From positions 1-45,452 of the forward strand of contig JANOEF010000568.1 of assembly GCA_031413075.1 (NCBI GenBank): 45,452 bases of DNA, given 5' to 3'. Origin of the DNA: Acidobacteriota bacterium. Lineage in GTDB: Bacteria; Acidobacteriota; Blastocatellia; Pyrinomonadales; Pyrinomonadaceae. A program made the position numbers and the translations under genes. Below are positions 19,699-41,354 of this stretch, in pieces. The notes under the pieces are model-generated. The model worked only from the letters and a program-made list of their open reading frames with translations. It did no database searches and had not been told where the DNA came from. Positions within the stretch are counted from its first letter, which is position 1. Each line of letters opens with the position of its first letter.

Positions 19699-20568
19699 TT
19701 ATTTTTCAGCTTTTTGCGCTTTTTTCTCAATATCTTTAACTATTCGGATCGCGTGATTGCGGGCAATCAACGGGATTCGTTCATCGTTACTCAATTCCTT
19801 TAACAACGGAAGCATTTGCGAAGGGTCGGAAATTTCGTCGCGTCTGAGCAGGGAATCAAGCTTGTCCATCAGCCCGGGGGCTTCGAGCGGTTGATTTTCC
19901 CGCGCGACCGAAATATCAAAATACCAAATAAATTGTTCACTGATTCTTCGGTATTCATCCGTTAGAGACTTGGCCTCTTTGTTCTCCGTCCAGTTGTATT
20001 TAGCGGTTCTTTCCTTGCCAGCTTGGCGGAGTGTCACCGTGTAATTACCGAGATGCCCGTAATCTCGGGTGGGGGATTGATAAATTTCGGTTGAATCCAG
20101 AAAATTGAGCGCTTGAAAAACTTTATTCAATTTTTCGAGCGTGACGGTCGAGAGTTGAAGCGGATCCGAGATGGGTTCGCCAAAGTCTTTATGTTCAAAA
20201 GTCATTTTCCCTTTTCCGTTTTCATCGTGCTCGATAATAACGGATTTAATGACAAAATTCGGTTGCGAAAACTCATAGACAAAAGGGTATTTGATCTCTA
20301 CCGGCTTCGCCTTGGCAACATTTCTTTCAGCCTGATTTTTCTTCTGAGGTTCGTTTGTTTGAACGGTTTGGTCTTCGGGACGCTCATTTTTCTTGGGCGG
20401 CATCGGAGTCGGCACCACTTCTTCGGTCGGTGTTGAAACAGGTTGCGTAATTACCGCGGTGGTAGTTGTTTTCTTGGCCGGCTTCGTCGCCGGTTTTTTC
20501 TTGGTCTGGGCAAAGGACGAAACCGATAAAAGTAAAATAATGGGGACAAAAATAAATATTTTTTTCAT
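19699..20568 (-). CDS. Secreted hypothetical protein
   Basis: Signal peptide MKKIFIFVPIILLLSVSSFA, a T/P/K-rich linker and a ~190-aa domain with no motif I recognise. The ATG overlaps the Uma2 stop. Confidence 0.6.
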   Translation of the reverse strand: MKKIFIFVPIILLLSVSSFAQTKKKPATKPAKKTTTTAVITQPVSTPTEEVVPTPMPPKKNERPEDQTVQTNEPQKKNQAERNVAKAKPVEIKYPFVYEFSQPNFVIKSVIIEHDENGKGKMTFEHKDFGEPISDPLQLSTVTLEKLNKVFQALNFLDSTEIYQSPTRDYGHLGNYTVTLRQAGKERTAKYNWTENKEAKSLTDEYRRISEQFIWYFDISVARENQPLEAPGLMDKLDSLLRRDEISDPSQMLPLLKELSNDERIPLIARNHAIRIVKDIEKKAQKAEK

Positions 20569-21251
20569 TGTAATTCGTTCAAATGTTGGCGAAACTCTTT
20601 TAACGCCAGAGTTTGTCCTTTTTCCCGACTTAATTTCAGGTATTCTGTTAATTTTTCAGCCGAAAGTAACGGCAAAGAAAAGCTGTGTGAGATTTGATGA
20701 TACTTTTTGCCCCTGAGTTTGTTAAAGGAAATTTTTTTGCCGTCAAAAACCCAGACTTCAGGAACTTTGAGGGCTGAATAAATCGGGAATTTATCGAGCG
20801 AATTAGTAGTTACGTCAATTTCAACAGCTAAATCAGGAGCGGGAAACTCGTTTGCCTTGATTTTTGTTCCAATAATTTTTTGAGCAGATTGAATGTAATA
20901 ACATTCATCCGGTTCAAGTCCTTTTTCCAAAAAATCGCGCCGAAAGGTGGTTGATTTTCGACCTTCGAGGTTTAAATTAAACTGCTCGCAATAAGCGCGT
21001 ACAAAATCGTGAATTGAGAAGCTGTATGATTCGTGTTCCGGAGTTGGCGGCATAATTTCTAATTTCCCCTCATTGTAAGCTAAACGCCATCCAGCCTTTT
21101 CGGCAAAATCTTCTAAGAAAAGTTCGTATTCTTTCCAAGAAACATCATTGAGCAAAATCCGTCTGCCACTATCCGCAGTTAAAAGATTAATCGCCGTGAA
21201 CTTGTCCAAGACAAAATTTTCAGTTGCAATTACGCTCATTTTTTTTACCAC
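20565..21251 (-). CDS. Uma2-family (DUF820) PD-(D/E)xK endonuclease
   Basis: Uma2 core ...EGKLEIMPP...HE...PDLAVEIDVTTNS... The start is either GTG 21251 or ATG 21239. Confidence 0.8.
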   Translation of the reverse strand: MVKKMSVIATENFVLDKFTAINLLTADSGRRILLNDVSWKEYELFLEDFAEKAGWRLAYNEGKLEIMPPTPEHESYSFSIHDFVRAYCEQFNLNLEGRKSTTFRRDFLEKGLEPDECYYIQSAQKIIGTKIKANEFPAPDLAVEIDVTTNSLDKFPIYSALKVPEVWVFDGKKISFNKLRGKKYHQISHSFSLPLLSAEKLTEYLKLSREKGQTLALKEFRQHLNELQ

Positions 21252-21413: not shown

Positions 21414-24400
21414 CTATTCAAATCTCACCGAAACAACTTTAGAAACTCCGGCCTCTTCCATTGTCACGCCATACAGAGCTTTAGCGGATTCCATTGTTCG
21501 TTTGTTGTGCGTGATGACGATAAACTGAGTTTTTTCGGACATTTGCGCGATTTTATCAACGAATCGTCCGACGTTGGCGTCGTCCAGCGGTGCATCAACT
21601 TCGTCCAATAAACAAAACGGCGACGGACGATATTGGAAAATCGCCATGACCAACGCGATAGCGGTCATGGCTTTTTCGCCGCCCCGAAAGGAGCAGAATA
21701 TTTTGCAGCCGTTTGCCCGGCGGCTGGGCGACAATTTCGATGCCCGATTCTAAAATGTCATCGGCTTCGAGTAAGACCATTTCGCCTTTTCCGCCCCCAA
21801 AAAGTTCAAGGAAAAACTCTTTGAAATAGCCGTTGACCGCATGGAAAGCCTCACGAAAACGCTCGCGTGAACGCTGTTTAATCTCGCGCAGAGCCTCTTC
21901 GGCTGAATTGATGCTGTCAATAATGTCCTGGCGCTGCGAAGTCAAAAACAAAAGCCGTTCTTCGGTTTCGCTCAACTCTTCGAGGGCCAGCATATTAACG
22001 GCTCCGAACCCCTCAATCCGGTGGCGCGAACTTTCTACTTCGCGGCGCGCATGTTCTAAATCAAAAGTGTCTGCAACTTCAATTTGCTCAACTATTTCAA
22101 CCAAAGAATGATTCAATTCCTGCAAACAATTTTCGTTCAGATTTTGCAGCCGAGTGATTGATTCAGCTTTTTTGATCTCGATGGTTGCCCGCGAATTCCG
22201 GGCCTCGGCCGAGCGTTGGTTGAGTAAGGCCAGTTCTTCTGACATTGCGTCGGCCTCTTGGCGTTCATTTTTCAGATTTGTAATCGCCTCATTAAGTTCG
22301 TTTTGCTCCTCATTTTCCTCGGACTCGGAACTCGTAGTTTTGCTGGTAATTTCAGCAATCGAAGCATTTAAGGCGTTGAGAGTGTTTTCTGATTCGATGA
22401 TTTCGAGACTTTGGCGATTGAGGCGTGATTCGATTTCGGATCGTTCTGATTCAACCCGGCGGAGCGCAGTCTGGGCCGAACGGCGACGCTCGGCGGCCAC
22501 GCCGGCCAGAGTTCTTTTTTCGTTGACGAGCGCATTTTCCGTCTCAACTTTGTTTCGTGCAACGCCAATGTTCTCAGATATTTGCGCTAATTTATCCGCT
22601 GCCGATTTTCTGGCTAATTCGGCTTTTTGGGCATTTGATTTTGCGTCTTTTTGCCGTAAAACTAATTCGGCGAGTTCGTTTTCAATCTGTTTTGTTTCCT
22701 CTGAAACTACTTTTTTGTGACGTTCGGCTCGTTCTAATTCCTGAGCAAGTGATTTGGCTTGAATTTCCTGGGATAACAACTCGCGCTCTGCCGTCGTGAT
22801 AACCGCTTGCAGTTCGGTTAGTTGCGAATCTTTGACGGCGAGTTTTCGGCGCACTTCGGCAATTTCTTGTTCGCTCTTTTCAACCTCTTTAACCTGTTTT
22901 TCGCTGTTGGCCTGCAACTCGCGCAATTCGCGTTTGAAGCCTAAAAGCGAGGAATTTTTTTCATTCTGCTGCGCTTTGCCGCTCACAAAAAGTTTGTTGC
23001 AGAAAACCAAATCACCGTCACTTGTCACAAATGACTGAGCTTTAGCGTCATCAAAATTATCAACCAACTGCGCCGACATCTCACGCGGAAAAACCTCACT
23101 CAAAAGACTCAATAAACCATCAGAAACGCCAAGATAATTTGCGGCTTTGGACTTTGGACTTTGGACTTTGGATTTTTGACCTTGCACCAAAATGCTTATT
23201 CTTCCAACATTATTTTCGCCGACATATTTGGCGACCCGGCGGGCATCGGCTTCGGTTTCGACCAAAATTGTTTGTAAATATGCCCCAAAAAGATTTTCCA
23301 CCGCTCTTTCGGCCGATTGTTCAACCGTCAGTTTATCGGCCAAAGTTCCCAACAGATTGACTCCGATGTGGTCTTGTTCAGCGAAAATCTTTTGCACATT
23401 AGGGGTATAGACGGCACGCTTGGCATCGAGTTCCCGGAGCGTTTCAAGCCGGTGTTTAGTGCGCGAAAACTCTTCGCGGAGTTTAGTCAGAGACTTTTCG
23501 TCCAACTGTAAAGATTGTTTTAGCTCGCCGACTGCCTCTTGCTGCTCACGTTTTTCGCTTTGTAATTTAGAAACCGTTTCCCGGATTTGGGTGATTGATT
23601 TTTCCAGCGTTCGGCTCCGGACAAGATGTTCTTCGTGAGTTTCTTCGGCCCGCTCACCTTCGCGTTTGAGTCCTTCGAGTCTTTCGAGCAATCTTTCGGA
23701 AGTATTTTCCAGTTGCCGTTCAATTTCGGCAAATCGCTCGACGGCCGCAGTATGAGTCAAAAGCTCATTTCGATATTTTTCGATTTCTGCCTCTATCTCT
23801 CTTAATTCATTGAGTTTAGTTTGATATTTTTGTTCGGCTTCGCGCAGTGAAAGTTCTTCCCGTTCCGCCTCAGAGCGTTGGATTTTGTCGTCTTTTTCGA
23901 GTCGTTCAACTTCGGCTTTAATCAACCCCAAACGAGTCTCAAGCGATTCAACCTCGCCTTGCAAAATCAAAGAACGACTTTGTACATTGTTCAATTGCTC
24001 CTGTTTATAAACGAGTTCACGCGAATTTCGGTCGCGTTGTAAGGCGTTTTCGGCGTGTTGTGAGCGCAGCGCCGCCAAGATTTCTTCGGCTTCACGCGCC
24101 TGGTGGGTAGATGCCCGGAACGCCTCATCTTTGGTGGCGACTTCGGAAAACAGATTGCGTTCGAGGGTGACGGCCGTTTCGAGTTTATCTTCTAACTCAT
24201 TGACTAATTCGGTCAAAAACCTTCCTTCGGCGGCAAAAACCTGCCTCAGGAGTTCGCGCAATTCATCACGTAAAACTTTGTAGCGGCGAGTCTTAGAGGC
24301 CTGACGGCGCAACGAGTTGGCTTGTTTATCAATTTCTTCGACAATGTCAGAAATTCGTCGAAGATTTGTTTTGGCTGATTCCAGACGGGCTTCGGTGGCT

Positions 24401-25671
24401 CGTTGACGGGTGCGAAATTTGGAGATTCCGGCGGCTTCTTCGATCAAACTGCGCCGGTCTGACGGTTTGGCGGACAGAATTTGTCCGATCCGCCCTTGTT
24501 CAATGATGGCGTAATGCGCACCCGAAAGCCCGGTTCCGGCAAATAAATCCTGAATATCGCGCAGGCGACAAGTTCTGCCATTGAGCAAATATTCACTTTC
24601 GCCTGACAGATACAGCCGGCGAGTAACTGAAACGGCTTCGCCCGGCGCAAAGTCTAAGGCGACCCGGCTTTTGCGCCAATGACGCTTTGACTTGACTTTC
24701 GCCAGCGCGGTTGCCGTGCCGCCGACGCTTTCGGCGCTTTCAGGAACGATTTCGGTTTCGGCCGGTTCGATTAGTGAAACTTCAAATTCTTCGGAGCTGA
24801 CGGCGTGTTCATCAATATCGCCTAAAGCCTCGTCAATATCGCCGAGTTCATCGTCAAAAAACGGAGTTTCATCGCGGACAAGGTGCAACACGACCTCCGC
24901 CATCCCGCTTGGCTTGCGTTTGCTCGTGCCCTGAAAAACCACGTCTTTCATCTCCGCGCCGCGCAGGGCTTTGGCCCGTTGTTCGCCCAGCACCCAGGCG
25001 ATACTTTCGGAAACATTGCTGTTGTGGACAATCATATTTCCTGCGACAAAATTGTGCGTTTCATCAATGCTCAGGTCATAAACCCATTTGTCGGTTGGTC
25101 CAATTTCTTCGATACTAACAATTTCATCAAGGCAAATATCAGATTTCATCAAGGCAAATATCAGTTTCAGCGACATACTTGGCAAATTGTTTGGAACCAC
25201 AATTCCCAATCCGACTCTCAGTTCATCCGCCCGAACTGCTTCAAGTTTTCCTTCTTTCAGAGCAAATAAAGGATGATACGGCGTGGCAGTTATTTCGCGT
25301 CCCGCCCGAGTTCTCACCCGAAGCAGTTTTTCGGTAGTTTCGCGTTTGATGAAGGCCGAAACTTTTCGGTTCTCCAATTTCAAATTAGCTGGATTTAGCG
25401 AAATAATTTCAACATTTTCCGGATTGTCGGAGGTTACGAATCCATCGTCAAATTGCTCTTTGAAAAATGCACCTTGCAAAGCGTTTTCAACAAGTTGACG
25501 AATTTTTACTTCGTCACCATTAGACAAAGTAATGAGAGTGTTACCATCAACACATTTTCCACAACCGTTTGGCCCGACCACAGCCGTAATTCCATCACCC
25601 GTAAATACTATTTCGGTGTAATCGGCGAATGACTTAAAACCCGTAATTTCGAGACGTTGAAGTTTGAACAT
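21414..25671 (-). CDS. smc: Chromosome partition protein SMC, interrupted by an intein and by one frameshift
   Basis: N-terminus [15 protein letters not shown], Walker A GPNGCGK..S, long heptad coiled coils, a hinge, and C-terminal LSGGEKA + [10 protein letters not shown]. It reads through only after removing 25021-25554 and correcting one extra G at 21682-21685. Confidence 0.9.
21682..21685 (-). other. +1 frameshift site (G4 run on the coding strand) inside the SMC LSGG signature motif
   Basis: The coding strand reads ctc ctt tcg GGGG cgg cga aaa. With GGG instead it reads [38 protein letters not shown]. Confidence 0.85.
23146..23180. repeat. 5-unit heptamer microsatellite (TTTGGAC-type) in frame inside smc
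   Basis: Read directly. The minus strand encodes [14 protein letters not shown]. Confidence 0.9.
25021..25554 (-). other. Class-1 mini-intein (178 aa) inserted between K and S of the SMC Walker A motif
   Basis: Intein blocks CVDGNTLI (A, Cys1), [10 protein letters not shown] (B, TxxH), [14 protein letters not shown] (F) and GNMIVHN|S (G, HN plus Ser+1). The flanking exteins join to [21 protein letters not shown]. Confidence 0.85.
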
Positions 25672-26213
25672 TAAATATAGCGAGTTTCCCAATTGAAAAG
25701 CAATATATTTTGTAGTAAAGGCGCATTCAAATCAAGTCAGATGATAAGCTAATTGACTGTAAAGTTATCTTCAAAAAAAATGAGTGATCTATTTCCCGAA
25801 TTTTAGGATTTCCGCATATTAGAAAGCTCACCGGAAAACACAGCGGCAGACGTTATTTCGATATCGCCTTGCCATACATAAAAAGTTGATGAGCTTTCAG
25901 CCCAAGCGAACTCAATCTGTCAAAGATAATAGACATTATTTGAAATAAACTTGAATCAGATTAAACCGAAGATTTGCCCGCTAATGAACGCGAAAAAACG
26001 CGAATAAAATCCTTTTGGTTGGTAAAAAACGAATCAGATTGAACCAAATCTTAAAAAGATTCGCGCCGATTCGGGTGATTCGCGGGCAATTTCTTATTAC
26101 AAATAATCTCTATTGAATTGCTGATTTTGTTTCACCGTGAACCGCCACGCGCTTGGAGTTTGTTCGGCGCAAAATATGCCGATTTTATGTGGTGTCACAC
26201 AGTTTTAGTGATG

Positions 26214-26589: not shown

Positions 26590-26771
26590 TTTTTACCTCT
26601 CGAATTTTTTATTATTTAACGCGCCACCGGTGACTTAATAACTTAGACAACACGGAATTTGAAAAAGTCTGAAAAAGATGAGCAATTTTATCTAATCAAA
26701 AGGATTGCGAGCCGAAGTTCAGGAAAAGTTTGAATTTGACTTTGCACCTCAGACTTGAGATTTTAGATTTT

Positions 26772-27131
26772 ATGACAAATGTTGATGAGCAAAGTTACCG
26801 CGAAAAGGTTTATGAAATCGTTCGCCAAATTCCCGGTGGAAAAATAATGACTTACGGACAGATTGCCGACATTTTAGGCGAAGGCTACACGGCACGGACA
26901 GTCGGCTATGTAATGCACGCGGCTTCAACGCAAAATGTTCCGTGGCAACGGGTTATCAATTCGCAAGGCGGTTGTTCGACGGCGAAAATGACGGTTCCTT
27001 TTAATCTCCAACAAAATCTTTTGGAACAAGAAGGTGTGATTTTTAACCAGGAAAAATGTGATTTAAAAGTCTATCGCTGGATGCCGGAAGGCTCCGAAGA
27101 GGAAGATGACCAACCGAGTCTGTTTGGGTAG
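26772..27131 (+). CDS. MGMT-family DNA-binding protein, alkyltransferase-like (ATL; active-site Cys absent)
   Basis: HTH block MTYGQIA, and VPWQRVIN in place of the PCHRV active site. Start set to ATG 26772. Confidence 0.75.
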   Translation: MTNVDEQSYREKVYEIVRQIPGGKIMTYGQIADILGEGYTARTVGYVMHAASTQNVPWQRVINSQGGCSTAKMTVPFNLQQNLLEQEGVIFNQEKCDLKVYRWMPEGSEEEDDQPSLFG

Positions 27132-27430
27132 GAATATTCAACACCTTTGTCGCCAATTTCGGACACGCCGGCGATGGTAACATCCACGTCAACTTTATGT
27201 GCAACCGCGAAGATCCCGACTCGATTCGACGTGCGCGTCTATGTGTCAGCGAAGCCTTTCAACTCTCCGTCAACCTCGGCGGCACAATCTCCGGCGAACA
27301 CGGCATCGGCGACGTCAAAGCCCCGTATCTGGACTACGCGATTGATAAATCAACGCTCGAAATTATGAAGGGAATCAAGCAAGTTTTTGACCCACTTGGG
27401 ATTTTGAATCCGGGGAAGATGTTTGTTTAG
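27132..27430 (+). pseudogene. 3' fragment (~100 codons) of a GlcD-like FAD-linked oxidase gene
   Basis: The frame reads IFNTFVANFGHAGDGNIHVN...GGTISGEHGIGDVKAPYL...IKQVFDPLGILNPGKMFV*. It begins directly after the ATL stop, and the N-terminal ~350 codons are missing. Confidence 0.75.
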
Positions 27431-27443
27431 AAAGAAAATTAGC

Positions 27444-27473
27444 CACGAAAAAACACGAAAAGACACGAAAAAC
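27444..27473. repeat. 3 x 10-bp phased repeat (CACGAAAA+N2) in the leader of the nuclease gene
   Basis: Read directly: cacgaaaaaa cacgaaaaga cacgaaaaac. It ends 4 nt before ATG 27478. Confidence 0.9.
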
Positions 27474-27477
27474 TTTT

Positions 27478-28332
27478 ATGACGAAACTCGAATTTATTGC
27501 ACGACAATTGGCCAAAGCTCAAAATAAAAAATATGAACATTATGTTGTCAATCGAATTTGGCATTTGCTTAATGATTTGAATGTTAAAATTGTCACGCAA
27601 CAATTTGTTTCAAGACCAAACGGCAGAGCAATGACTGATATGTATTTTCCTCAAATCGGGATTCATATTGAAGTTGATGAAGGCTTTCATAAAAAACAGA
27701 TTGATGTTGATAAAGTTCGAGAAGCCGATATTATCAACGCAACCGAACACGAAATATTTCGGGTTGACGTTACAAAAAATATTGAGCAAATTCATTTTGA
27801 AATTGATGCAATAGTTGCAAATATTAAAAGAAAAGTTGAAGTCTCACCAACTTTTAAACCTTGGGATTTAGATAAGGAACAGAGTTCGCAAACTTACATT
27901 GACAAAGGCTATATTGACATAAACGATGATGTTGCTTTTAGGACAATGGCAGATGCCGCAAGTTGTTTTGGACGTGATTACAGTAAAGGATTACAACTTT
28001 CTTATTTCAAACATCCAATTGAACCAAACAAGCGATTATGGTTTCCCAAACTTTATAAAAATGATAAGTGGAATAATCAATTATCCACGGATGAAAATGC
28101 AATTATCTCTACTACCGAATCAATGGAAGACTCTAAAGCAAATGTTGATTATATTATTTCTCAGAATCATTACAGCGTGATTGTTTTTGCAAGAGTAAAA
28201 AGTCCGCTTGGAGATACGATGTATCGGTTTAAGGGTGAATATAAAATTGATGAAGAAGCAACAAATTATGAGGTTGGTGGAATTTATCGAAGAATTGCAA
28301 CCCGCGTAAAAACTTATCCAAACAAAGCGTGA
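27478..28332 (+). CDS. Two-domain nuclease: N-terminal Vsr/DUF559-like PD-(D/E)xK domain plus C-terminal beta-rich domain; candidate modification-dependent (type IV, PvuRts1I/AbaSI-like) restriction enzyme
   Basis: The N-terminal half contains TDMYFPQIGIHIEVDEGFHKK, matching the D...E-x-D-x-x-H pattern of Vsr-like nucleases. Size (284 aa) and two-domain layout fit the PvuRts1I family. The region is very AT-rich compared with its neighbours. The family assignment is from memory, not from a search. Confidence 0.45.
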   Translation: MTKLEFIARQLAKAQNKKYEHYVVNRIWHLLNDLNVKIVTQQFVSRPNGRAMTDMYFPQIGIHIEVDEGFHKKQIDVDKVREADIINATEHEIFRVDVTKNIEQIHFEIDAIVANIKRKVEVSPTFKPWDLDKEQSSQTYIDKGYIDINDDVAFRTMADAASCFGRDYSKGLQLSYFKHPIEPNKRLWFPKLYKNDKWNNQLSTDENAIISTTESMEDSKANVDYIISQNHYSVIVFARVKSPLGDTMYRFKGEYKIDEEATNYEVGGIYRRIATRVKTYPNKA

Positions 28333-28418
28333 GATAATTACTTTGAACGATTAAATTTATTGTCCAAACTCTCGCAAAATGCTAAATTGAACTTATTGTT
28401 TCAGAGGTTACTAATTTT

Positions 28419-28502
28419 ATGGCAAATGATTTAACACAAATTGTGACGGAAAAGATGCAGGGTTTGCCGATTGAAGAACAGCAAAAGGCTTATGAGAAAT
28501 AA
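28419..28502 (+). CDS. Possible 27-aa ORF (MANDLTQIVTEKMQGLPIEEQQKAYEK)
   Basis: ATG-to-TAA ORF whose end overlaps the next ATG. The L-P-x-x-x-Q motif resembles short DUF2281-like antitoxin N-termini. Support is weak. Confidence 0.25.
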   Translation: MANDLTQIVTEKMQGLPIEEQQKAYEK

Positions 28503-28815
28503 TCAAAGTAATTTCATAGATTTATTTAGCTTGATGCTTCACACGAGCGTCGCAGAAAAATTGCGGCTGAATCCGAATGAAGTTTTGCAGATTGCCCGCG
28601 ACAACCTCAAAAGATGGTTGAAAAACGAAAATCCTGCCCTGCTTGAATGGCAGGAAATTCTCGAAATACATTCCCCCGCAGAAATTATCAAAATCATTAC
28701 TCAAGATACGGACGAAGGGCAAAGGCTTCGTTCATCTTCACCGTTTGTCGGCGTTTTGAGCGAAGCGGAACGCGACAAAATTTGGAGCAAATGTGCAGAG
28801 ATCCGACCTGTTTGA
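28492..28815 (+). CDS. Small helical protein, probable partner or antitoxin of the downstream nucleotidyltransferase-fold protein
   Basis: MRNNQSNF...VAEKLRLNPNEVLQIARDNLKRWL...LLEWQEIL...RLRSSSPFVGVLSEAERDKIW. It overlaps the next gene by 23 nt. The start could also be TTG 28471. Confidence 0.5.
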   Translation: MRNNQSNFIDLFSLMLHTSVAEKLRLNPNEVLQIARDNLKRWLKNENPALLEWQEILEIHSPAEIIKIITQDTDEGQRLRSSSPFVGVLSEAERDKIWSKCAEIRPV

Positions 28816-29380
28816 ATTAGTTCGACAAATCAAAAAAATAACGCCCGATGAACTACCGATTATTGTCGGTTCGCAAGCGGTGCATTTGGTCACAAACTTT
28901 CCGCCCGATATTATTCAACAATCAATCGAATGCGATTTTCTTTTTGTCGGTGGCAAAAGCGAAACCCGAATTGAGGTCAACAAAAGATTTGGAGTTTTCA
29001 GCAGTTTTCAACTCGAAAAAGGTTTTTACGCTGACGCTTTAGGCTTGGCGACAGTAATTTTGCCGACTAATTGGCAAGAAAGATTGCAACCATTTAAGGA
29101 TGAAAACGGTGAAACAATCGCTTTGGTGTCAGAAATTCACGACATTGCAGTTAGCAAATTGATTGCCGGAAGAGAGAAAGATTTTCAGTTTTTAAGAGAA
29201 TTATTTTCACGCCAACTCATTGAAACAGATCTGTTTATCGAAAGAGTTTTATTAGTCAAAGAGATGCCCCAAAATGCTGTGCTGATTTCCAGACTGGAAA
29301 ATTTAGAGAAATTTCTTTCGAGGGATTTATCTTTCAGAATTCGGGAATTGTTGAAAGATTTGAAATTAACTGATAGTTGA
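28793..29380 (+). CDS. Nucleotidyltransferase-fold protein (DUF6036-like)
   Basis: IIVGSQAVH..., ...SIECDFLF..., ...FYADALG..LPTNWQERL and DIAVSKLIAGREKDFQFL give a minimal NTase-like pattern. The GTG start overlaps the upstream gene. The family assignment is from memory. Confidence 0.5.
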   Translation: MQRSDLFELVRQIKKITPDELPIIVGSQAVHLVTNFPPDIIQQSIECDFLFVGGKSETRIEVNKRFGVFSSFQLEKGFYADALGLATVILPTNWQERLQPFKDENGETIALVSEIHDIAVSKLIAGREKDFQFLRELFSRQLIETDLFIERVLLVKEMPQNAVLISRLENLEKFLSRDLSFRIRELLKDLKLTDS

Positions 29381-29438
29381 AATCAAGCAAGTTTTTAACC
29401 CGAATGGCATTTTGAGTTCGGGGAAAATGTTTGTGTAG
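29379..29438 (+). pseudogene. Second, diverged copy of the last 19 codons of the glcD-like gene
   Basis: EIKQVFNPNGILSSGKMFV* here versus GIKQVFDPLGILNPGKMFV* at 27371-27430. The two copies share an identical 16-nt core, AATCAAGCAAGTTTTT. Confidence 0.8.
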
Positions 29439-29481
29439 AACAGAAAAAATGTTAGTATAATTGGCGTTTGAGGTTAAATTT

Positions 29482-29667
29482 ATGACTCCAAATTTCCAAC
29501 AAATCATCGAATCAATCCAACAACTTCCCGCGAGCGAGCAGGAGAAAGTTTTACATTGGTTGGAAGAGAAAAGAAAACCGCGTTTGACCACAGCTCGCAG
29601 GGGCGGAGTCGGCTACGCGGGCGGGGCAGTCCCGATTGACGGCGGAAGGGATAGTTTTCAAAGGTGA
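29482..29667 (+). CDS. Small ORF with a DUF2281-like N-terminus that runs into the ATL remnant
   Basis: MTPNFQQIIESIQQLPASEQEKVLHWLEEKRK..., preceded by TATAAT (29455-29460) and GAGG. The C-terminal half is out-of-frame ATL-remnant sequence, so the ORF is probably truncated or decayed. Confidence 0.3.
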   Translation: MTPNFQQIIESIQQLPASEQEKVLHWLEEKRKPRLTTARRGGVGYAGGAVPIDGGRDSFQR

Positions 29668-29746
29668 AAAATGCGAGGTTAACGTTTATCGCTGGATGCC
29701 GGAAGGATACGAGGAAGATGATGACCAACCGAGTTTATTTGGGTGA
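29588..29746 (+). pseudogene. Diverged 3' remnant of an ATL gene
   Basis: The frame reads ...GQSRLTAEGIVFKGEKCEVNVYRWMPEGYEEDDDQPSLFG*. The intact ATL gene ends ...LLEQEGVIFNQEKCDLKVYRWMPEGSEEEDDQPSLFG*. Identical cores are TATCGCTGGATGCCGGAAGG (20 nt) and GATGACCAACCGAGT (15 nt). Confidence 0.8.
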
Positions 29747-29759
29747 AATGTCGTCTGAC

Positions 29760-30908
29760 TTAAACTGATGAACCCGCCGCAAACCCAGAAGACCAGGCCC
29801 ATTGAAAATTATACCCGCCGAGCCATCCCGTCACGTCCACCACTTCGCCGATCAGATATAGACCTTTAACTCGTTTACTTTCCAACGTTTGCGACGAGAT
29901 TTCATCGGTCGAGACTCCGCCCAGTGTCACTTCGGCTTTGTGATAGCCTTCGGTCTCGTTGAACAAAACTTGCCAGCTATTCAAACTTTCGGCAACCTTC
30001 TCAAGTTCTTTTTTACTGATTTGATTAAGCGGCTTATTGTTTTTGATGAAACTTTCGGCAAACCGATTAGGCACATATTTAGACCAGAAATTATCGAGAT
30101 CCTGTTTGCTGTGGTGATTTTGTTCCAAAAGTTCCAGAGCATCTGTTTCGGGCAATAAATCAATCGAAACGGGCGCGTCCCGGCACCAATAATTTGAGAT
30201 CTGCAAAATAGCCGGCCCCGATAAACCGCGGTGCGTGAAAAGAATATTTTCCCGAAACTCGTGTTTTCCGCTTGTGACGATTGAATCAACCGAAACGCCG
30301 GCGAGCTTGCTAAAGTTCTGATCGGCAAACACCAGCGGAACCAGCGACGGACGGGTTTCGACAATTTTTAGTCCGAATTGGCGGGCAAGGCGGTAACCGA
30401 AATCCGTGGCGCCGATTTTGGGGAACGACAATCCGCCGGTCGCAATCACTAAACTTTCAGCTTCAAACACGCCTTGAGTAGCTTCGATGCGGAACAATTT
30501 ATTTTTAGAAACTGTTTTAACTGAACAATTTACCCGGATTTCGACTTTCGCTTTTTCACTTTCGGACAAGAGCATTTCGACAATTTGGCGCGAACTGTCT
30601 CGGCAAAATAACTGTCCGAGTTTTTTCTCGTAAAACTGAATTTTGTGACTTTTGACGAGCTCAATAAAATCCTGTGAGGTGTACCGAGCGAGCGCAGATT
30701 TACAAAAGTGCGGATTTTGTGAAACGAAATTGTTGAATGACACATCCCGATTGGTAAAATTACAACGCCCGCCGCCCGAGATCAGAATTTTGCGTCCAAC
30801 CTCAGGGTTATGCTCAAGCACGAGCGTTTGACGCCCGCGCCGGCCGGACTCAATCGCACAAAAAAGTCCGGCCGCCCCGCCGCCGATAATGATGACATCA
30901 AATTTCAC
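29760..30908 (-). CDS. HI0933/BaiN-family NAD(P)/FAD-dependent flavoprotein
   Basis: Rossmann motif DVIIIGGGAAGLFCA and the family signature ISGGGRCNFTN. Confidence 0.8.
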   Translation of the reverse strand: MKFDVIIIGGGAAGLFCAIESGRRGRQTLVLEHNPEVGRKILISGGGRCNFTNRDVSFNNFVSQNPHFCKSALARYTSQDFIELVKSHKIQFYEKKLGQLFCRDSSRQIVEMLLSESEKAKVEIRVNCSVKTVSKNKLFRIEATQGVFEAESLVIATGGLSFPKIGATDFGYRLARQFGLKIVETRPSLVPLVFADQNFSKLAGVSVDSIVTSGKHEFRENILFTHRGLSGPAILQISNYWCRDAPVSIDLLPETDALELLEQNHHSKQDLDNFWSKYVPNRFAESFIKNNKPLNQISKKELEKVAESLNSWQVLFNETEGYHKAEVTLGGVSTDEISSQTLESKRVKGLYLIGEVVDVTGWLGGYNFQWAWSSGFAAGSSV

Positions 30909-30956: not shown

Positions 30957-31466
30957 TTACAAATACTTATCCACCAATATTTTAACGTGATGTCTAGGAT
31001 GTCCGACCATACAGTAAGCCAGGGCGCGAACCGTAATCGGATTATCGCTGGCAACGCCGGTTTGGCTCCACGCCGCTTCGCTTAAATTTTTGAAAAATAA
31101 GATGTTTGATTTTCTCAAAAGGGAGAATTCTTCAAATAAATCTTCGATCTTGACCGCATTATAATTTGCATTTTCGACATACGGATTTTGGTCAAAACCG
31201 GCTAATGGCGTGTGATCGGCACGCGAAAATCGAAAGGCTCGATAGGCAAAAACTCTTTCGCCATCAATCAGATGTCCGAGTAATTCCTTGATCGTCCATT
31301 TTCCTTCGGCGTAGGCGTAAAGACCTTTTTCGTCAGTAATTTGGGAAAACAAATCGTGCATTTCGGTCAATTGGCTTTGCATCGCCAAAACTATATCGGT
31401 TTCCTCGACTAATGAAATATAATGGTCGTAATATTCGGCATATTCTGTTTTTTCCGGTCGTTTCAT
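30957..31466 (-). CDS. DinB-family (DinB_2) four-helix-bundle protein
   Basis: WTIKELLGHLIDGERVF...MVGHPRHHVKIL provides the His triad of DinB/YfiT-like proteins. Length 169 aa. Confidence 0.7.
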   Translation of the reverse strand: MKRPEKTEYAEYYDHYISLVEETDIVLAMQSQLTEMHDLFSQITDEKGLYAYAEGKWTIKELLGHLIDGERVFAYRAFRFSRADHTPLAGFDQNPYVENANYNAVKIEDLFEEFSLLRKSNILFFKNLSEAAWSQTGVASDNPITVRALAYCMVGHPRHHVKILVDKYL

Positions 31467-31934: not shown

Positions 31935-33446
31935 ATGTTTTCAACTGGGCAACAAATTGGCAGTTATACACTTCTGAGCACGCTTGGCAAGGGTGGTTTT
32001 GGTGAGGTTTGGTTAGCGGAAAAACGCTCACAACTTATTACCAAAAAAGTTGCTATCAAACTCCCACTCGAAGACCAAGTGAACCTCGAAGCTATTCGCC
32101 AGGAAGCCGAGCTCTGGGAACAAGCCAGCGGTCACGCCAACGTCTTGCCGATCATTGATGCTGATATTGTCAGTGGTCAGGTCATCATTGTCAGCGAATA
32201 CGCCGATGGTGGCTCGCTTTTCGATAAACTCAAAAGAGAAGGCAAACTTTCGCTGGAGCAAGCCGTTGAAATGACGATTGGAGTCTTAAACGGCTTAGAA
32301 TTTCTTCATCACAAACGCATCATCCACCGCGACATCAAACCGCAAAATATTTTGTTGCAAGGGAATACGCCGCGCCTGGCTGATTTTGGAATTTCGCGGG
32401 CAATGCAAACCACGGCGATAAGTTCTACGATTATTGGAACAGATGCCTATATGTCGCCCGAGTCATTTGAGGGAAAGCGCACTGTGCAAACGGATATTTG
32501 GTCGGTTGGTATTTTGTTTTATTCGCTTTTGGCGGACAAGTTGCCTTTTCCGCAAGAGCATCCGTCGGAAAGAATGTTTGCCATTTTGACCAGAGAATTT
32601 GTGCCGTTACCGAATCATATTCCAAATAGTTTGCAACAAATAGTCAGCAAAGCGTTAGCCAAATCGCCGGAAAATCGTTATCAAACTGCGAAAGAAATGC
32701 GCGAAGAGTTAAACAGGGCTTTGGTTGGAATCGAACATCCAACGCTGGCAAAAACTGAGGTTTTGCAGATTCCGATTTCCAACCAAACCGTGACGGATGT
32801 AACTTCGCTCGACCAAATTTATCAAACTAATCAACCGCCGAAAGAGCCAACTGTCCACCATCCGCAACCTGTGACACAACCGCCCATTCAGCCGCCGGTA
32901 ATTGAATTTAAGCCTGTTCCGCTGATGGGAAATGAGGCGCAGAAAATTGCGGATAAAACCCGGAAATCGGAATCGAGCGTTGAATCATTTGTCTATGGAC
33001 TTTATGCGGTGGTGGGTCTATTTGGGTTGATTATTTTTATTGCTATTATCGGTGTTATGTGGGGCAGTTCAAGCACCATTAAAACAAGCGATACTTCGTA
33101 CGCAACTAACAATAATAAACCTGCAAATGCTGTTTCGACAACAGAAATGAATATCGAAATAACTACTACCTCCAGAGTTTATTTTATTGCTGATTTTGAT
33201 GCGAAAAGCGACACTTTTTTCCTAGAGTCGGGAAAGGTAAAAAGATACAATCCCAAAAACTATTTTAATCTTTCCTATTCCAAAGTTGCATTCGGTTTGG
33301 TTCAATTAAAACTTAACGGCAAATCAATTCAGCTTCCCGACGCCGAAAGTCCCGAAGAAACAATGGTTGATTTTAAGATAACTAAAAGTAATTTAGCGGA
33401 GGTTTTGCGAACCGGTAAAATTACCCAAACAACATCAGATCGTTGA
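31935..33446 (+). CDS. Hanks-type Ser/Thr kinase with a TM helix and one C-terminal DUF4115(RodZ_C)-like ectodomain
   Basis: Kinase motifs LGKGGFGEVW, VAIKLP, HRDIKPQNILL, DFGISR and GTDAYMSPE; TM helix LYAVVGLFGLIIFIAIIGVMW; C-terminal ...VQLKLNGKSIQLP... Confidence 0.9.
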   Translation: MFSTGQQIGSYTLLSTLGKGGFGEVWLAEKRSQLITKKVAIKLPLEDQVNLEAIRQEAELWEQASGHANVLPIIDADIVSGQVIIVSEYADGGSLFDKLKREGKLSLEQAVEMTIGVLNGLEFLHHKRIIHRDIKPQNILLQGNTPRLADFGISRAMQTTAISSTIIGTDAYMSPESFEGKRTVQTDIWSVGILFYSLLADKLPFPQEHPSERMFAILTREFVPLPNHIPNSLQQIVSKALAKSPENRYQTAKEMREELNRALVGIEHPTLAKTEVLQIPISNQTVTDVTSLDQIYQTNQPPKEPTVHHPQPVTQPPIQPPVIEFKPVPLMGNEAQKIADKTRKSESSVESFVYGLYAVVGLFGLIIFIAIIGVMWGSSSTIKTSDTSYATNNNKPANAVSTTEMNIEITTTSRVYFIADFDAKSDTFFLESGKVKRYNPKNYFNLSYSKVAFGLVQLKLNGKSIQLPDAESPEETMVDFKITKSNLAEVLRTGKITQTTSDR

Positions 33447-33529: not shown

Positions 33530-35389
33530 ATGTTTCAAGCAGGTCAACAAATCGGCAGTTACACGCTTCTCCGCAAACTCGGGCGCGGCGGATTTGGGGA
33601 GGTTTGGCTGGCGGAAAAACGTTCGCAGTTTGTGACCAAAAAAGTGGCGGTTAAATTACCGCTGGACGAGCAAATAAATTTTGATGCGATTCGCCAGGAA
33701 GCCGAACTGTGGGAACAAGCCAGCGGAAACGCCAATATTTTGCCAATCATTGATGCCGATGTGATTGACGGTCAAGTCGTCATTGTCAGCGAATATGCCG
33801 ATGGCGGTTCACTTCACGATAAACTGCGGAACGAAGGAAAATTGCCGTTCAAACAAGCTGTTGAGATGACCATCGGAATCTTGAACGGCTTAGAATTTCT
33901 GCACAACCGAAAAATCATTCACCGGGACATTAAACCGCAAAATGTGCTGCTCCAGGGCGATACGCCGCGGTTGGCAGATTTCGGCATCTCGCGGGCAATG
34001 CAAACAACTTCAATCAGTTCCAAACTGGTTGGCACCGATGCCTATATGTCGCCCGAAGCCTTTGACGGAAAACGAAGCGTGCAAACCGATGTTTGGTCGG
34101 TTGGTGTGGTTTTGTATCAATTGCTGGCGGGCAATCTGCCGTTTCCCCAAGAGCACCCATCGGAAAGAATTTTTGCGATTTTGACCAAAGAATTTCCGCC
34201 TTTGCCGGAGGGAGTGCCGCAGAGTTTGCAGCGGGTTATTGCTAAAGCCCTGGCTAAACAGCCGGAAAATCGTTATCAAATATCGGGCGAAATGCGCGAA
34301 GAATTACAACGGGCTTTAGTTGGTATTGAGCATCCGACATTAGCAAAAACTGAGGTTTTGCAGCTTCCAATTTCCAACCAAACGGTGACGGATGTGACGA
34401 ATATTGGCGAATTATTGAAAACACAAGAGCCGGAAAAAGAAACGGCAAAAAATAATTCTCCCATCAATATTCCGGTTAATATTCCGGTTATTTGGGAGCC
34501 TTTGCCTGAGTCAGAGCCTATTCAACCGCAATATAAAAAAAAAGTCCGATTGGTAGAAAATAAAACTGTCACCACCGAACCACAAAAAGTTGCCAATCCG
34601 TCTCAAAAAACGGAATTAGGAATAAACTTTCGCAGATTCGGAACTGCCATTTTGATTGGAGCGGCAGCAGTGCTATTGGTGATTATTGTGGCTAGTATTG
34701 CTCTGGCTCCACGCAAAACTTCTCAATCGAAAAATGCTTCAAATTCATCTTCAACAGCGTTGATGAATATCGAAGTGAAAACTTTCGGCGGTGCGTCATT
34801 GACAATGAATGCAGATGACCGAAGAGAAGAAGCAAATTTTGGAGAGCCTTCGCCCAAAACATATAATTTTGCAGCCCAAACCAGCTTTACAATTACATAT
34901 AGCGTTTATGACGTTGATAAATTTCAATTAAAGATTAACGGTAAAATTATTAAACTTTCAAAAACGCCGCCGTTAGGAGATTCTAGAAGCAAATTTGTTG
35001 TAACCAAAGATAATCTCCAACAGATTTTGCAACGGGGCTCAAATGAAAACATAGTTTCCACTTCAACTGTTAGTCCTACTCCTTCAAGTTCCCCCACGCC
35101 ATTGGAAATGAATATCGAATTTACAGCTACCGAGCCGGTTGCCTTTTTTGTAAGTCTGGATAACGGCAAGGAAGAACCGATAATTTTAGGAGCAACAATG
35201 ATAAAAAAGATTTCTCCACAAAAGAGTTTGGAACTTAAATATTCGCCTGAAAAAGCCGACATTATTCAATTAAAAATCAACGGCAAAGTTATTTCACTTC
35301 CTAGAACAGGAACTGGAAAGGGAATGATCGAGCTCAAAATTACGAAAGACAATCTTAACCTAATTTTGCAAAGCGGAAGAATTATTTAG
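33530..35389 (+). CDS. Paralogous Ser/Thr kinase with a TM helix and two DUF4115-like ectodomain repeats
   Basis: The kinase domain is nearly colinear with the upstream paralogue, with mostly identical residues through ...LVGIEHPTLAKTEVLQLPISNQTVTDVT. Two modules follow: ...FQLKINGKIIKLS... and ...IQLKINGKVISLP... Confidence 0.9.
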   Translation: MFQAGQQIGSYTLLRKLGRGGFGEVWLAEKRSQFVTKKVAVKLPLDEQINFDAIRQEAELWEQASGNANILPIIDADVIDGQVVIVSEYADGGSLHDKLRNEGKLPFKQAVEMTIGILNGLEFLHNRKIIHRDIKPQNVLLQGDTPRLADFGISRAMQTTSISSKLVGTDAYMSPEAFDGKRSVQTDVWSVGVVLYQLLAGNLPFPQEHPSERIFAILTKEFPPLPEGVPQSLQRVIAKALAKQPENRYQISGEMREELQRALVGIEHPTLAKTEVLQLPISNQTVTDVTNIGELLKTQEPEKETAKNNSPINIPVNIPVIWEPLPESEPIQPQYKKKVRLVENKTVTTEPQKVANPSQKTELGINFRRFGTAILIGAAAVLLVIIVASIALAPRKTSQSKNASNSSSTALMNIEVKTFGGASLTMNADDRREEANFGEPSPKTYNFAAQTSFTITYSVYDVDKFQLKINGKIIKLSKTPPLGDSRSKFVVTKDNLQQILQRGSNENIVSTSTVSPTPSSSPTPLEMNIEFTATEPVAFFVSLDNGKEEPIILGATMIKKISPQKSLELKYSPEKADIIQLKINGKVISLPRTGTGKGMIELKITKDNLNLILQSGRII

Positions 35390-36875: not shown

Positions 36876-36977
36876 AATTCAAAATAATAAGGGAAAGTTG
36901 AAAATCAGTCCAACCAAAGTCGGAAACTATTTGAAATCTCTGCAGGTGTGGTAAAATCTGAGCGAAAAGGAGTTTGT

Positions 36978-37622
36978 ATGGAAGTAGTTTTAACTGAACC
37001 AAAAGTCCAAGTTTTAATTGAAGAGCATGTGATTTTACGTGGTGTTTCGTGGAAAGCATACGAGCAATTGATGATAGACCACGAAAATCGAAGTGCGCCA
37101 CGTTTTACCTACAATGAAGGGGATTTGGAGATTTATATGCCATCACAAAAGCACGAAGAAAAATCAAATTTCTTGGAGGATATTGTCAAAGCAATCACTG
37201 AGGAACGTGACCTGGAGTCAAGAAATATTCGTTCTACCACTTTCAAAAGAGACTTGACAAAAAAAGGAGTTGAGCCGGACGGCTGTTTTTATTTACAAAG
37301 CTATGATGAAGTTTTTGGGATGAAAGAAATTGATCTCGAACTTTATCCGCCTGATTTAGTGATTGAAGTTGATATTTTTAGCCCTTCGATAAATCATTTT
37401 CCAATCTATGCTGAGTTCAGCGTAAATGAAATTTGGCGTTATCTGAAAGACGAAGTAAAAATCTATCTTTTCGATGGTAGAAAATATGTAGAATCAAACG
37501 AAAGCCTCGCTTTACCAAAAGTTACGGACGAATTGCTGACAAAATGGTTAGCCGACAGCGAAACAATGAAGCGTTCGGCATGGCTCAAAAATGTGCGGAG
37601 TTGGGCGCGTCAGGAAACTTAA
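36978..37622 (+). CDS. Uma2-family (DUF820) endonuclease, paralogue of 20565-21251
   Basis: ...EGDLEIYMPSQKHE...PPDLVIEVDIFSPS... An AAGGAG Shine-Dalgarno lies 6 nt before ATG 36978. Confidence 0.8.
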   Translation: MEVVLTEPKVQVLIEEHVILRGVSWKAYEQLMIDHENRSAPRFTYNEGDLEIYMPSQKHEEKSNFLEDIVKAITEERDLESRNIRSTTFKRDLTKKGVEPDGCFYLQSYDEVFGMKEIDLELYPPDLVIEVDIFSPSINHFPIYAEFSVNEIWRYLKDEVKIYLFDGRKYVESNESLALPKVTDELLTKWLADSETMKRSAWLKNVRSWARQET

Positions 37623-37731
37623 AATCAACATTCTCAAAATTAAATTCGATGTTTCACGAAGGTCAACAACACACTTTGAAAAGAAAAGAAATTTTCGCCA
37701 ATTCTTCGTTTTATGCTAGAATCAACCTGTT

Positions 37732-38425: not shown

Positions 38426-38461
38426 TTCCAATCTCTAAATCCGCTATAATATCAACCTATT

Positions 38462-39058: not shown

Positions 39059-39187
39059 AATACTGAGCGAAAAACAATTTTGTTAGGAAACCGGCGAATC
39101 GTCATCGGGTCCAAAGAAAATAGATACAAAAAGTAGAAACAAGAGGTTGAATAGCCGTATGTCGTCCAAGTGGCTACAATAAACGTG

Positions 39188-41330: not shown

Positions 41331-41354
41331 GCCCATGCCGGAGGCTCCCGACCG

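Follow-up and report, generated by a model that had tools for sequence, protein, structure and literature searches.

Most defence and toxin-antitoxin genes lie in hotspots without mobile-element genes, and their arrival route is poorly understood. In the minimal mobile elements of Neisseria described by Saunders and Snyder, cassettes without mobility genes sit between conserved genes and are swapped by recombination in the flanks. Integrative and conjugative elements (ICEs), integrative and mobilizable elements (IMEs) and cis-mobilizable elements (CIMEs) accrete at the 3' ends of protein genes, for example fda in Streptococcus thermophilus, and the CIMEs are bounded by attachment (att) sites with a fixed core. 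Homology-facilitated illegitimate recombination, reportedly described in 2002 by de Vries and Wackernagel and by Prudhomme and colleagues, is said mostly to delete recipient DNA. Restriction-modification (RM) systems of types I-IV, as well as a solitary mcrA, were found inserted with long target duplication: the repeats were 46-423 bp, mobility genes were absent, the hosts were mostly naturally competent species, and for one Haemophilus insertion the repeat and a gene's 3' end overlap (Furuta, Abe and Kobayashi, 2010; PMC2853133; see also Nobusato et al., 2000). The mechanism was given as unknown and linked to recombination-proficient hosts, and DNA breakage by RM enzymes and a repeat-driven life cycle were suggested (PMC2853133). 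In Photorhabdus, toxin-antitoxin systems cluster in small high-turnover spots, sometimes without recombinases (PMC13617665, 2026). Here we describe a related arrangement in a 45,452-nucleotide (nt) stretch of DNA from a soil Acidobacteriota bacterium of the Pyrinomonadaceae (contig JANOEF010000568.1, assembly GCA_031413075.1; the whole stretch is referred to as the window). At 26.7-29.8 kb, an islet of defence-type genes is enclosed by duplicated 3' ends of two genes, an alkyltransferase-like (ATL) gene and a glcD-like oxidase gene. Comparison with related contigs (L numbers below) suggests that in Pyrinomonadaceae the space after glcD collects small self-contained toxin-antitoxin or defence cassettes, as does the space after ATL in the lineage of the window. 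Each addition left the final 25-100 bases of the older gene end downstream. We lean towards host recombination at an insertion hotspot as the explanation, and not a mobile element with its own enzyme; the best match among known systems would be insertion with long target duplication, repeated serially.

To locate the duplicated ends, we searched positions 26700-29800 for direct repeats. Only two pairs were returned: A1 (27030-27129) and A2 (29645-29744), 78% identical over 100 nt, and G1 (27373-27432) and G2 (29381-29440), 85% identical over 60 nt. They lie where an earlier note on this DNA had placed duplicated ATL and glcD ends, and the core lengths given there were reproduced as the longest identical runs (20 and 15 nt in A1/A2, 16 nt in G1/G2). 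The best two ungapped repeats scored 40 and 33, as compared with a maximum of 16 and a mean of 12.5 in 100 dinucleotide-preserving shuffles of the same range; the third-best real repeat scored 13, close to the shuffle mean, and is thus at chance level. The A pair brackets ~2.5 kb with a repeat of ~100 nt, and the G pair brackets 1.95 kb with a repeat of 60 nt. No further pair of gene-end relics was found in the whole window. The parts of the islet and its right flank are given below (position, strand, identity; nt, nucleotide; aa, amino acid; ORF, open reading frame).

26772-27131, plus strand: intact ATL gene of the MGMT family, without the catalytic Cys (PF01035, 7e-21); the last ~100 nt are A1
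27126-27139, plus strand: deletion joint from the ATL stop to glcD codon ~376 at the microhomology GGTAnGAA (alignment with full-length glcD of L082, L088 and L090)
27134-27430, plus strand: 5'-truncated fragment of a glcD-like (FAD-linked oxidase) gene, 98 codons plus stop (PF02913, 1.2e-32; TIGR00387 glcD, 2e-30); the last 60 nt are G1
27478-28332, plus strand: modification-dependent nuclease of the AbaSI/PvuRts1I family, 284 aa (PADLOC mREase_II, 1e-98; PDB 4PAR, 1.5e-57, and 4OKY, 1e-36)
28352-28502, plus strand: stub of a VapB-like antitoxin gene, promoter region and first 27 codons (ORF 28419-28502), fused to the gene that follows; L087 9764-9900 is 94% identical at the nt level
28492-29380, plus strand: two-gene cassette, a 107-aa protein (28492-28815) and a DUF6036 protein of nucleotidyltransferase fold (28793-29380; PF19502, 4.8e-08)
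29379-29438, plus strand: G2, the older 3' end of glcD after its displacement (19 codons and a stop), which runs on into the older cassette downstream; it meets the DUF6036 stop at the microhomology AAT
29482-29588, plus strand: stub of a DUF5678 antitoxin-like gene, first 36 codons (the intact L081 gene, of 113 aa, is 91.7% identical at the aa level; the L082 homologue has a confirmed DUF5678 domain)
29589-29647, plus strand: 59-nt fragment, 73% GC, of the glcD N-terminal FAD-binding region (RGG.GY.GGAVP; glcD nt ~245-305)
29645-29746, plus strand: A2, second ATL 3' end of 34 codons (stop included), with 13 nt between it and the stop of the convergent flavoprotein gene
29760-30908, minus strand: HI0933-like flavoprotein gene, right conserved flank (PF03486, 5.6e-93; TIGR00275, 7e-128; 92% aa identity to L081)
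30957-31466: DinB_2 gene, right conserved flank

Profile, PADLOC and PDB matches agreed with the gene identities proposed in the earlier note (ATL, glcD end, nuclease, nucleotidyltransferase-fold pair, flavoprotein), and two of its details were refined. The small decayed ORF before A2 is indeed an ORF remnant, and can now be named as the first 36 codons of the DUF5678 gene that is intact in L081. A2 had been drawn as 29588-29746; the ATL end starts at ~29645, and 29589-29647 is the N-terminal glcD fragment, matched at 81-88% nt identity in glcD of six relatives (L082, L087, L090, L091, L109 and L175). This 59-nt piece appears to be filler between two illegitimate joints (AC and GAA). The ATL protein carries PWQRV where methyltransferases have the PCHRV active-site Cys motif, and it is 93% identical to the ATL of L081 (P0001). 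The glcD fragment covers positions 158-248 of the 248 of the FAD-oxidase_C profile and shows 83-92% aa identity to the ends of the 474-aa full-length genes of L082, L088 and L090. The nuclease has the Pfam architecture PvuRts1I-like_N plus SRA and is predicted to be a restriction endonuclease of the 5-hydroxymethylcytosine/glucosylated 5-hydroxymethylcytosine (5hmC/ghmC) type; the AbaSI/PvuRts1I family cuts hydroxymethylated or glucosylated DNA. Its gene has a GC content of 34% vs. 46% for the window, and an exact look-up of the protein among public contigs gave no match. The VapB stub has an intact counterpart in L087, a 77-aa gene upstream of a PIN toxin, and the identical stub and joint are present in L090; the window copy is what is left of a VapBC cassette. 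In 26.7-29.8 kb we detected neither a recombinase domain nor a tRNA, and no Rfam family above noise. The absence of integrase and transposase genes noted earlier held in Pfam, NCBIfam and PADLOC scans of all islet ORFs. A sigma-70/terminator scan of the islet gave fewer matches than shuffles.

By its flavoprotein, ATL and glcD homologues the window belongs to the Pyrinomonadaceae. Its closest relative is L081, a JGI contig with ~90% nt identity in the right flank. Its gene order is FTHFS, a 46-aa ORF, ATL, glcD fragment, DUF5678, a 94-aa ORF, a short second ATL end, flavoprotein (minus strand) and DinB (minus strand). L081 has one glcD end only (87% identical to G1), which leads straight into DUF5678, and the segment of G2 plus DUF5678 stub (29381-29588) is 92.8% identical to L081 5901-6108. 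The insert between G1 and G2 (PvuRts1I, VapB stub, 107-aa gene and DUF6036) is missing from L081, but the A1/A2 pair is present. The inner pair proposed from the window does bracket DNA that the closest relative lacks, and the G1-G2 interval appears to be either an insertion relative to L081 or a segment lost from L081 by recombination between the copies. Since the A pair is common to both contigs, the outer pair predates their split.

The relics show polarity. The DNA after G2 in the window is the DNA after the live (gene-borne) glcD end of L081; the relic of L107 with its downstream DNA matches the live gene end of L104 with its downstream DNA; the relic before the 107-aa gene of L082 has a stop-to-promoter joint equal to that at the live end of L088; and the relics of L104 and L109 precede DUF1801 and His_Phos_1. 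On the gene-proximal side, the glcD 3' part and PvuRts1I form one contiguous block with 77-81% identity across the window, L175 and L176. The idea that the proximal copy is a replacement end travelling with its cargo is in agreement with this block, which is common to L175 at 81%. Because the relics are colinear with older neighbours and the new end is contiguous with the cargo, cassettes enter next to the gene and the old end is pushed outward. Arrays reach up to three copies of the glcD end.

We next made a profile from 19 live glcD ends and searched it across all related loci; extra copies were evaluated by Smith-Waterman comparison against shuffled queries for 25 contigs of the close clade and for 50 whose glcD genes are more distant. 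An extra glcD-end copy was found at z>6 in 9 of the 25 close-clade contigs and more weakly in 3 others, and in none of the 50 distant ones. Such copies follow glcD in the window, L082-L086 (two copies), L087, L090, L099, L102, L104, L107, L109, L110, L175 and L176. They always finish at the stop codon, and their left edges fall 24-88 nt before it. The cargo between the copies is as follows.

L102: a ParE pair
L099, L104, L110, L090 and L176: VapBC
L107: DUF433 and PIN_10
L109: a 417-aa protein and VapBC
L090: ThsB-TIR, caspase, VapB stub, a 106-aa gene and DUF6036
L082: DUF5678 and an aspartyl-protease-like protein; a 107-aa gene and DUF6036
L087: a KAP-like P-loop protein of 558 aa and VapBC
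L175: PvuRts1I alone

The pattern first noticed in the window recurs in many related genomes with varied cargo and no recombinase. The suggestion that full-length glcD might elsewhere be followed by similar cargo was borne out in L175, where a full-length glcD is followed by the same 46-nt spacer, an 87%-identical PvuRts1I gene and a ~80-nt glcD-end relic; in L176 PvuRts1I again follows glcD, the start of which is cut by the contig edge. The pair of 107-aa and DUF6036 genes (81-83% nt identity) immediately follows glcD in L088; in L082 and L090 a glcD-end relic precedes it. The layout of the hotspot is glcD, array, (DUF1801) and the histidine-phosphatase gene His_Phos_1. In L093, L095 and L097 the phosphatase gene begins 4 nt past the glcD stop, which is the hotspot in its empty state. 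No recombinase was detected in or beside ~13 arrays (Pfam/NCBIfam/PADLOC scans of cassette ORFs; precomputed Pfam for L081-L088 and L175-L176), no integrase-bearing occupant of the glcD site in ~25 close-clade contigs (a limited sampling), and no Phage_integrase match adjoining glcD in any locus. Three further observations concern these loci. The first array genes of L090 (2558-3916), directly after glcD, encode a ThsB-like TIR protein (133 aa) and a caspase-family peptidase (317 aa), which may form a two-gene defence system. A frameshift splits glcD of L087 (6556-8014) into ORFs of 382 and 121 aa, and the neighbouring array is intact. In the lineage of the window and L081 only the last 98 codons of glcD are left, so the hotspot persists without a functional glcD at the locus.

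Arrays of this kind could also be produced by site-specific recombination. The cassettes would then be integron-like or CIME/IMEX-like units moved by a recombinase encoded in trans, with one recognition site within the final ~25-30 nt of glcD and another within the ATL tail; the repeats would be attL and attR, and the variable left edges would reflect differing attP lengths or later erosion. The right edge is always at the stop and the proximal copy completes the gene, as with elements at tRNA or protein-gene 3' ends, and the arrays have a direction, their newest cassette lying next to the gene, which recalls the attI-proximal insertion of integrons. The joints point the other way. One DUF6036 cassette has three different relic joints, 45, 60 and 88 nt upstream of the stop in L082, the window and L090, respectively, and has no relic in L088; the upstream VapB-stub joint is common by descent to the window and L090 despite their different distal joints. 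With parental sequences inferred from relatives, the DUF6036 joints show microhomologies of 2-6 nt (AAT, AT(n)AAC, GAAA). In the window, the DUF5678 stub joins the N-terminal glcD piece at AC, this piece joins the ATL C-terminal end at GAA, and the ATL stop joins glcD at GGTAnGAA, which spans the ATL stop region and the glcD codons G-K-K (2-8 nt overall).

The identical cores coincide with conserved coding sequence. Those of the A pair fall on the most conserved codons of the ATL tail, YRWxPEG and QPSLFG (120 homologues, in which the C-terminus ...YRWMPEG..QPSLFG is conserved), and that of the G pair falls on the most conserved codons of the glcD end (19 live ends). The relics carry frameshifts and indels, the latter also inside the putative core, with no conservation beyond the codons of the conserved peptide; in G2 the decay includes a change of NP to SS, and relics in general show indels and non-conservative changes. 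Folding of the copies as DNA (8 on the plus strand, 2 on the minus strand) gave z values of -1.6 to +0.9 relative to shuffles, with no hairpin, and reading the sequences revealed no RYYYAAC...GTTRRRY pairs or dif-like arms. As a separate point, the relics were considered as structured DNA sites, known RNAs or tRNA fragments; this was rejected, as there was no significant folding, no Rfam match above noise and no tRNA. The scattered edges, the microhomologies, the decayed and unfolded relics and the cores that fall on conserved codons are all unlike the attachment sites of a site-specific recombinase. The Pyrinomonadaceae ATL proteins themselves (window 27096-27131; P0001-P0120) have an acidic stretch and then a near-invariant QPSLFG/E at the very end. 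It resembles the beta-clamp-binding motif QxxLF, and strong conservation of the ATL-tail DNA would follow from such a motif.

The clade-specific pattern, and the small, promoter-bearing and mostly toxin-antitoxin cassettes, which resemble the cargo of chromosomal integrons, would suit a recombinase in trans, and tyrosine recombinase genes are present 11-13 kb away in the window. These integrases, however, adjoin a tRNA-Val gene and an insertion sequence (IS), which are likely their own targets; both cores gave no matches in a scan of IMG/VR viral contigs, and the ~13 arrays contain or adjoin no recombinase. Overall we regard a recombinase in trans as unlikely. The attL/attR interpretation in the earlier note was not supported, in view of the scattered edges (24-88 nt), the microhomology joints, the lack of a core beyond codons and a divergence that reaches ~1.3 kb into glcD (see below). 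Its decayed or trans-mobilised integrative elements fared no better, given joints at differing positions and no integrase-bearing occupant. A more specific form, in which the attachment site of an integron-like capture system in Pyrinomonadaceae is the final ~30 nt of a housekeeping gene (glcD, perhaps ATL) and a dedicated recombinase or nuclease is encoded elsewhere, seems to us a rather long shot. If it were true, the relics would be functional recombination sites that mobilise toxin-antitoxin and defence cassettes as units.

The identity profiles along the flanking genes are informative about the proximal side. L082 and L087 are conspecific (identical ATL proteins), and their nt identity is 96-100% over ATL and GDT1 and up to ~100 nt into glcD. 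Over the 3' two-thirds of glcD it falls stepwise to 84-95%; the final 100 nt are only 74% identical, and nothing relates the two arrays that follow. The divergence extends over ~1.3 kb of glcD. A weaker gradient was seen between the window and L081 in the right flank, with 87-90% across the flavoprotein gene and 93-98% two kb further. A gradient of this kind is what recombination tracts leave when they start in the variable region and end variably inside the flanking gene. Decay into the gene, instead of a sharp step at a core, argues against a site-specific event. Two marks of homology-facilitated illegitimate recombination were found, the homologous anchor in one strong pair and the distal microhomology at the joints.

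Among the three explanations listed in the earlier note, the third, exchange of cargo by homologous recombination with conserved gene ends as anchors, fits best. In the host-recombination reading, a new cassette would arrive on DNA of a related strain together with the adjacent gene end of that strain. On the proximal side, homologous recombination of the RecA type inside the conserved gene would leave the gene intact with a foreign 3' part. On the distal side, an illegitimate joint would form at a microhomology of a few nt, often tens of bases before the resident stop, and the resident gene end would be displaced downstream as a short relic still joined to its former neighbours. Repetition would give an array with the newest cassette nearest the gene, in which cassettes are added and not exchanged. 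Gene-end copies on both sides of a cassette could then serve as portable homology arms for gain, loss, swap and gene conversion by the host. The anatomy of the loci, how they recur and their polarity can be read from the sequences, as can the joints with microhomology, the mosaic structure of glcD and the lack of a recombinase; we infer the route of DNA entry (transformation or other) and the role of RecA.

The gene-end debris might instead have arisen with no horizontal input, by tandem duplication or amplification of an ATL-glcD-array segment within one genome followed by deletional erosion. Given the order ATL then glcD, the glcD N-terminal piece and the ATL C-terminal end are joined as they would be at a duplication or circle junction, and deletions are frequent (VapB and DUF5678 stubs, and a 126-nt deletion in the glcD fragment of L081). 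On the other hand, the cassettes between the copies are mutually unrelated, the composition is foreign (PvuRts1I at 34% GC in a window of 46%), and A2 and G1 look like other alleles and not like decayed copies. The A2 peptide AEGIVFKGEKCEVNVYRWMPEGYEEDDDQPSLFG falls inside the variation range of the ATL family (120 homologues), and A2 has the look of a terminus from another functional ATL allele rather than of A1 in decay. There is no long second glcD copy in the close-clade contigs searched, and at least three units plus several precise deletions would be needed for the observed order. Purely internal duplication is in our view improbable. The short relics were also considered as eroded full second gene copies, an idea that was dropped as a general rule because no relic longer than ~90 nt occurs in the close-clade contigs searched.

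The outer ATL pair was compared with the flavoprotein and ATL loci of relatives. The earlier note predicted an empty site in which ATL converges on the flavoprotein gene. No ATL facing the flavoprotein gene directly was present in 17 flavoprotein loci of relatives (L001-L013 and L177-L180), and the outer pair itself is also found in L081. These loci contained no ATL-end relic beside the flavoprotein gene; relatives with 81-84% identical flavoproteins, and more distant ones, had neither ATL nor relic there. A genome-collection scan with the flavoprotein returned distant relatives only (at most 76% identity), with no synteny across the junction. Duplicated ATL ends were limited to the window and L081 when other ATL loci were examined (L082-L091; L170-L174 by translated comparison with the window only). 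In the sample of L088, the ATL-glcD locus and a flavoprotein gene (L180) are on separate large contigs, assuming one genome.

The order in relatives explains the junction of ATL and glcD. In L082-L087 the genes are ATL, GDT1 (minus strand) and a 474-aa glcD (frameshifted in L087); in L088 they are FTHFS, ATL, PD-(D/E)XK (minus strand), M48 peptidase and glcD, with a similar order in L091 and in L175. ATL and glcD are natural neighbours with genes between them, so the direct junction of ATL with the glcD fragment in the window is a deletion. The same joint is present in L081 at 5795-5806. The second ATL end beside the flavoprotein gene is shorter in L081 (66 nt), and there the two ATL ends are identical at 64/66 positions vs. 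78% in the window; a Leu codon near the ATL end is CTG in A1 and TTA in A2 of the window, and the reverse in L081. The high identity within L081 and the codon swap suggest that the two ATL-end copies interact. On the 5' side of ATL, similarity ends 25-70 nt before the start codon (window vs. L081; L082 vs. L087), at ~26700-26772 in the window, 8199-8294 in L082 and ~5399 in L081. The genes beyond are unrelated (FTHFS, glycosidases and Endonuclease_NS; SMC/orf107 in the window), and the 5' side of ATL is another variable boundary.

At least four events, the number and order of which we infer, would have shaped the window under host recombination: (a) a microhomology deletion from the ATL stop into glcD, also in L081; (b) the origin of a second ATL end beside the flavoprotein gene, also in L081; (c) gain, upstream of G2, of the block made up of G1, PvuRts1I, VapB stub, 107-aa gene and DUF6036, or alternatively loss of this block in L081; and (d) loss of most of DUF5678 and its partner, with the 59-nt glcD piece as filler. 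The two joints common to the window and L081 (ATL stop/glcD fragment, and second ATL end beside the flavoprotein stop) also bear on whether the duplicated ends could be artefacts of metagenome assembly, for example chimeric joins between strains. The window and all relatives are metagenome-derived contigs, in which strain mixtures are common. The copies nevertheless differ by 15-22%, all point the same way and are joined with gene precision; five samples independently yielded the L082-type arrangement, and analogous structures occur in assemblies from four sources (ENA, JGI, Logan and NCBI). An assembly artefact is extremely improbable.

Several points weigh against the host-recombination reading. 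The outer ATL pair, with its 59-nt filler and its link to the flavoprotein gene, has no unfilled counterpart. The distal joints cluster in the last ~90 nt of glcD and, on the side of the cassette, within ~20 nt of the stop of the last ORF, a clustering that random illegitimate joining would not predict. As reasons for this clustering we can only offer survivorship (longer repeats being lost by recombination) and streamlining. Relics longer than ~90 nt were found in none of the close-clade contigs searched, and it seems that the duplications are born short or that longer ones are quickly lost. The clade specificity (0/50 elsewhere) could point to a dedicated factor. Natural competence or another entry route has to be presumed for these bacteria, and RecA is less efficient when, as here, the gene ends of donor and recipient are 10-20% different. 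The gradient of divergence comes from one conspecific pair and one weaker pair.

Insertion with long target duplication is the closest described parallel. Furuta et al. (2010) looked for repeats of >30 bp, inserts of <20 kb, an unfilled relative, the absence of mobile-element genes and the presence of R and M genes. The repeats and inserts of the window fall within these sizes (G, 60 nt and 1.95 kb; A, ~100 nt and 2.5 kb), and the islet has no mobile-element gene. A relative with a single unfilled target was found for the G pair and not for the ATL pair. The cargo is a solitary Type IV-like nuclease with toxin-antitoxin-type pairs, in place of R and M genes; as a solitary mcrA inserted in this manner is reported by Furuta et al. 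themselves, the mechanistic resemblance stands. The two have in common the defence genes, including a Type IV enzyme, a direct target duplication and the lack of transposase and integrase. They differ in that here the glcD 3' end is reused across a family, with as many as three copies per array, toxin-antitoxin pairs rather than RM systems make up most of the cargo, and the copies are diverged alleles.

The other systems share fewer features with the islet. Minimal mobile elements are similar in their alternative recombinase-less cassettes at a site beside conserved genes; they move by double crossover with no duplicated end, whereas here one side is non-homologous and cassettes accumulate. 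Homology-facilitated illegitimate recombination has one homologous anchor, a distal joint at 3-8 nt of microhomology near the anchor and a gain of foreign DNA. The difference is that here the joint lies upstream of the end of the anchor and gives a duplication, and the case in Acidobacteriota is reconstructed from sequence. CIMEs resemble the islet as recombinase-less DNA between 3'-end direct repeats, with a replacement end supplied and tandem accretion, but they have a fixed att core and integrase-bearing ICEs at the site, neither of which was found here. Integron arrays and CALINs (clusters of attC sites lacking integrases) also consist of oriented, small, toxin-antitoxin-rich and recombinase-free cassettes, newest proximal, with separators of ~50-100 nt; the separators here are coding relics with variable left edges and no attC symmetry or folding, and no intI or attI is adjacent.

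Other parts of the window contain further features. A mobile-element patch at 40605-43657, 11-13 kb to the right of the islet, includes a 243-aa tyrosine-integrase fragment (40605-41336, minus strand) overlapped by an rve-type transposase gene (41136-42155, plus strand), a tRNA-Val(CAC) gene (42167-42241, minus strand) and a 365-aa protein with a phage-integrase SAM-like domain (42560-43657, plus strand). It is probably an island at tRNA-Val disrupted by an IS, and no link was found between this patch and the glcD/ATL repeats. About 16 diverged 21-nt tandem units (e.g., ATTTCCCTAACTCGGAAAATG) at 43585-43920 overlap or just follow the end of the integrase-like ORF. Three genes for Uma2-family putative nucleases (20565-21251, minus strand; 36948-37622 and 38462-39058, plus strand), a PIN protein gene (37961-38425) and an N6/N4 DNA methylase gene (39170-40141) were also found; those at 36948-40141 together with 20565-21251 look like a second cluster of defence or toxin type. 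The SMC gene (21595-25692, minus strand) has an intein (Intein_splicing, aa 55-224) in the Walker A P-loop, GPNGCGK|C...HN|S, and its C-terminal signature is LSGRRKSH, not LSGGEK; the last ~100 codons seem frameshifted, which could be a sequencing error or mark a pseudogene. A long tandem array of 7-nt units (TTGGTAA / TTCGTAA) occupies 2773-3066 in the region of the 5' end of a DUF3419 gene, with a short echo 1.2 kb away at 4267-4313. Two tandem paralogous Ser/Thr kinase genes (31935-33446 and 33530-35389) are 76-82% identical over several hundred nt, and a third Ser/Thr kinase gene lies at 12750-14933.

What appears to be new at these loci is the serial reuse of one protein-gene end across a family, arrays separated by relics, and evidence for a homologous proximal anchor together with distal microhomology. 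The locus requires no new enzymology. It extends the cargo of such sites by a solitary AbaSI/PvuRts1I-type nuclease (window) and by a pair of ThsB-TIR and caspase. Each acquisition leaves a dated scar, the displaced gene end, from which the order, polarity and joints of the events can be reconstructed. The finding suggests a simple route by which host recombination alone would stack cassettes rather than swap them, with the stranded end later serving as a homology arm. If the pattern holds in more Acidobacteriota, the long target duplication of Kobayashi would grow from a feature of isolated RM insertions into a general mechanism of accretion, and diverged serial relics of gene ends would provide a cheap sequence signature for such hotspots.

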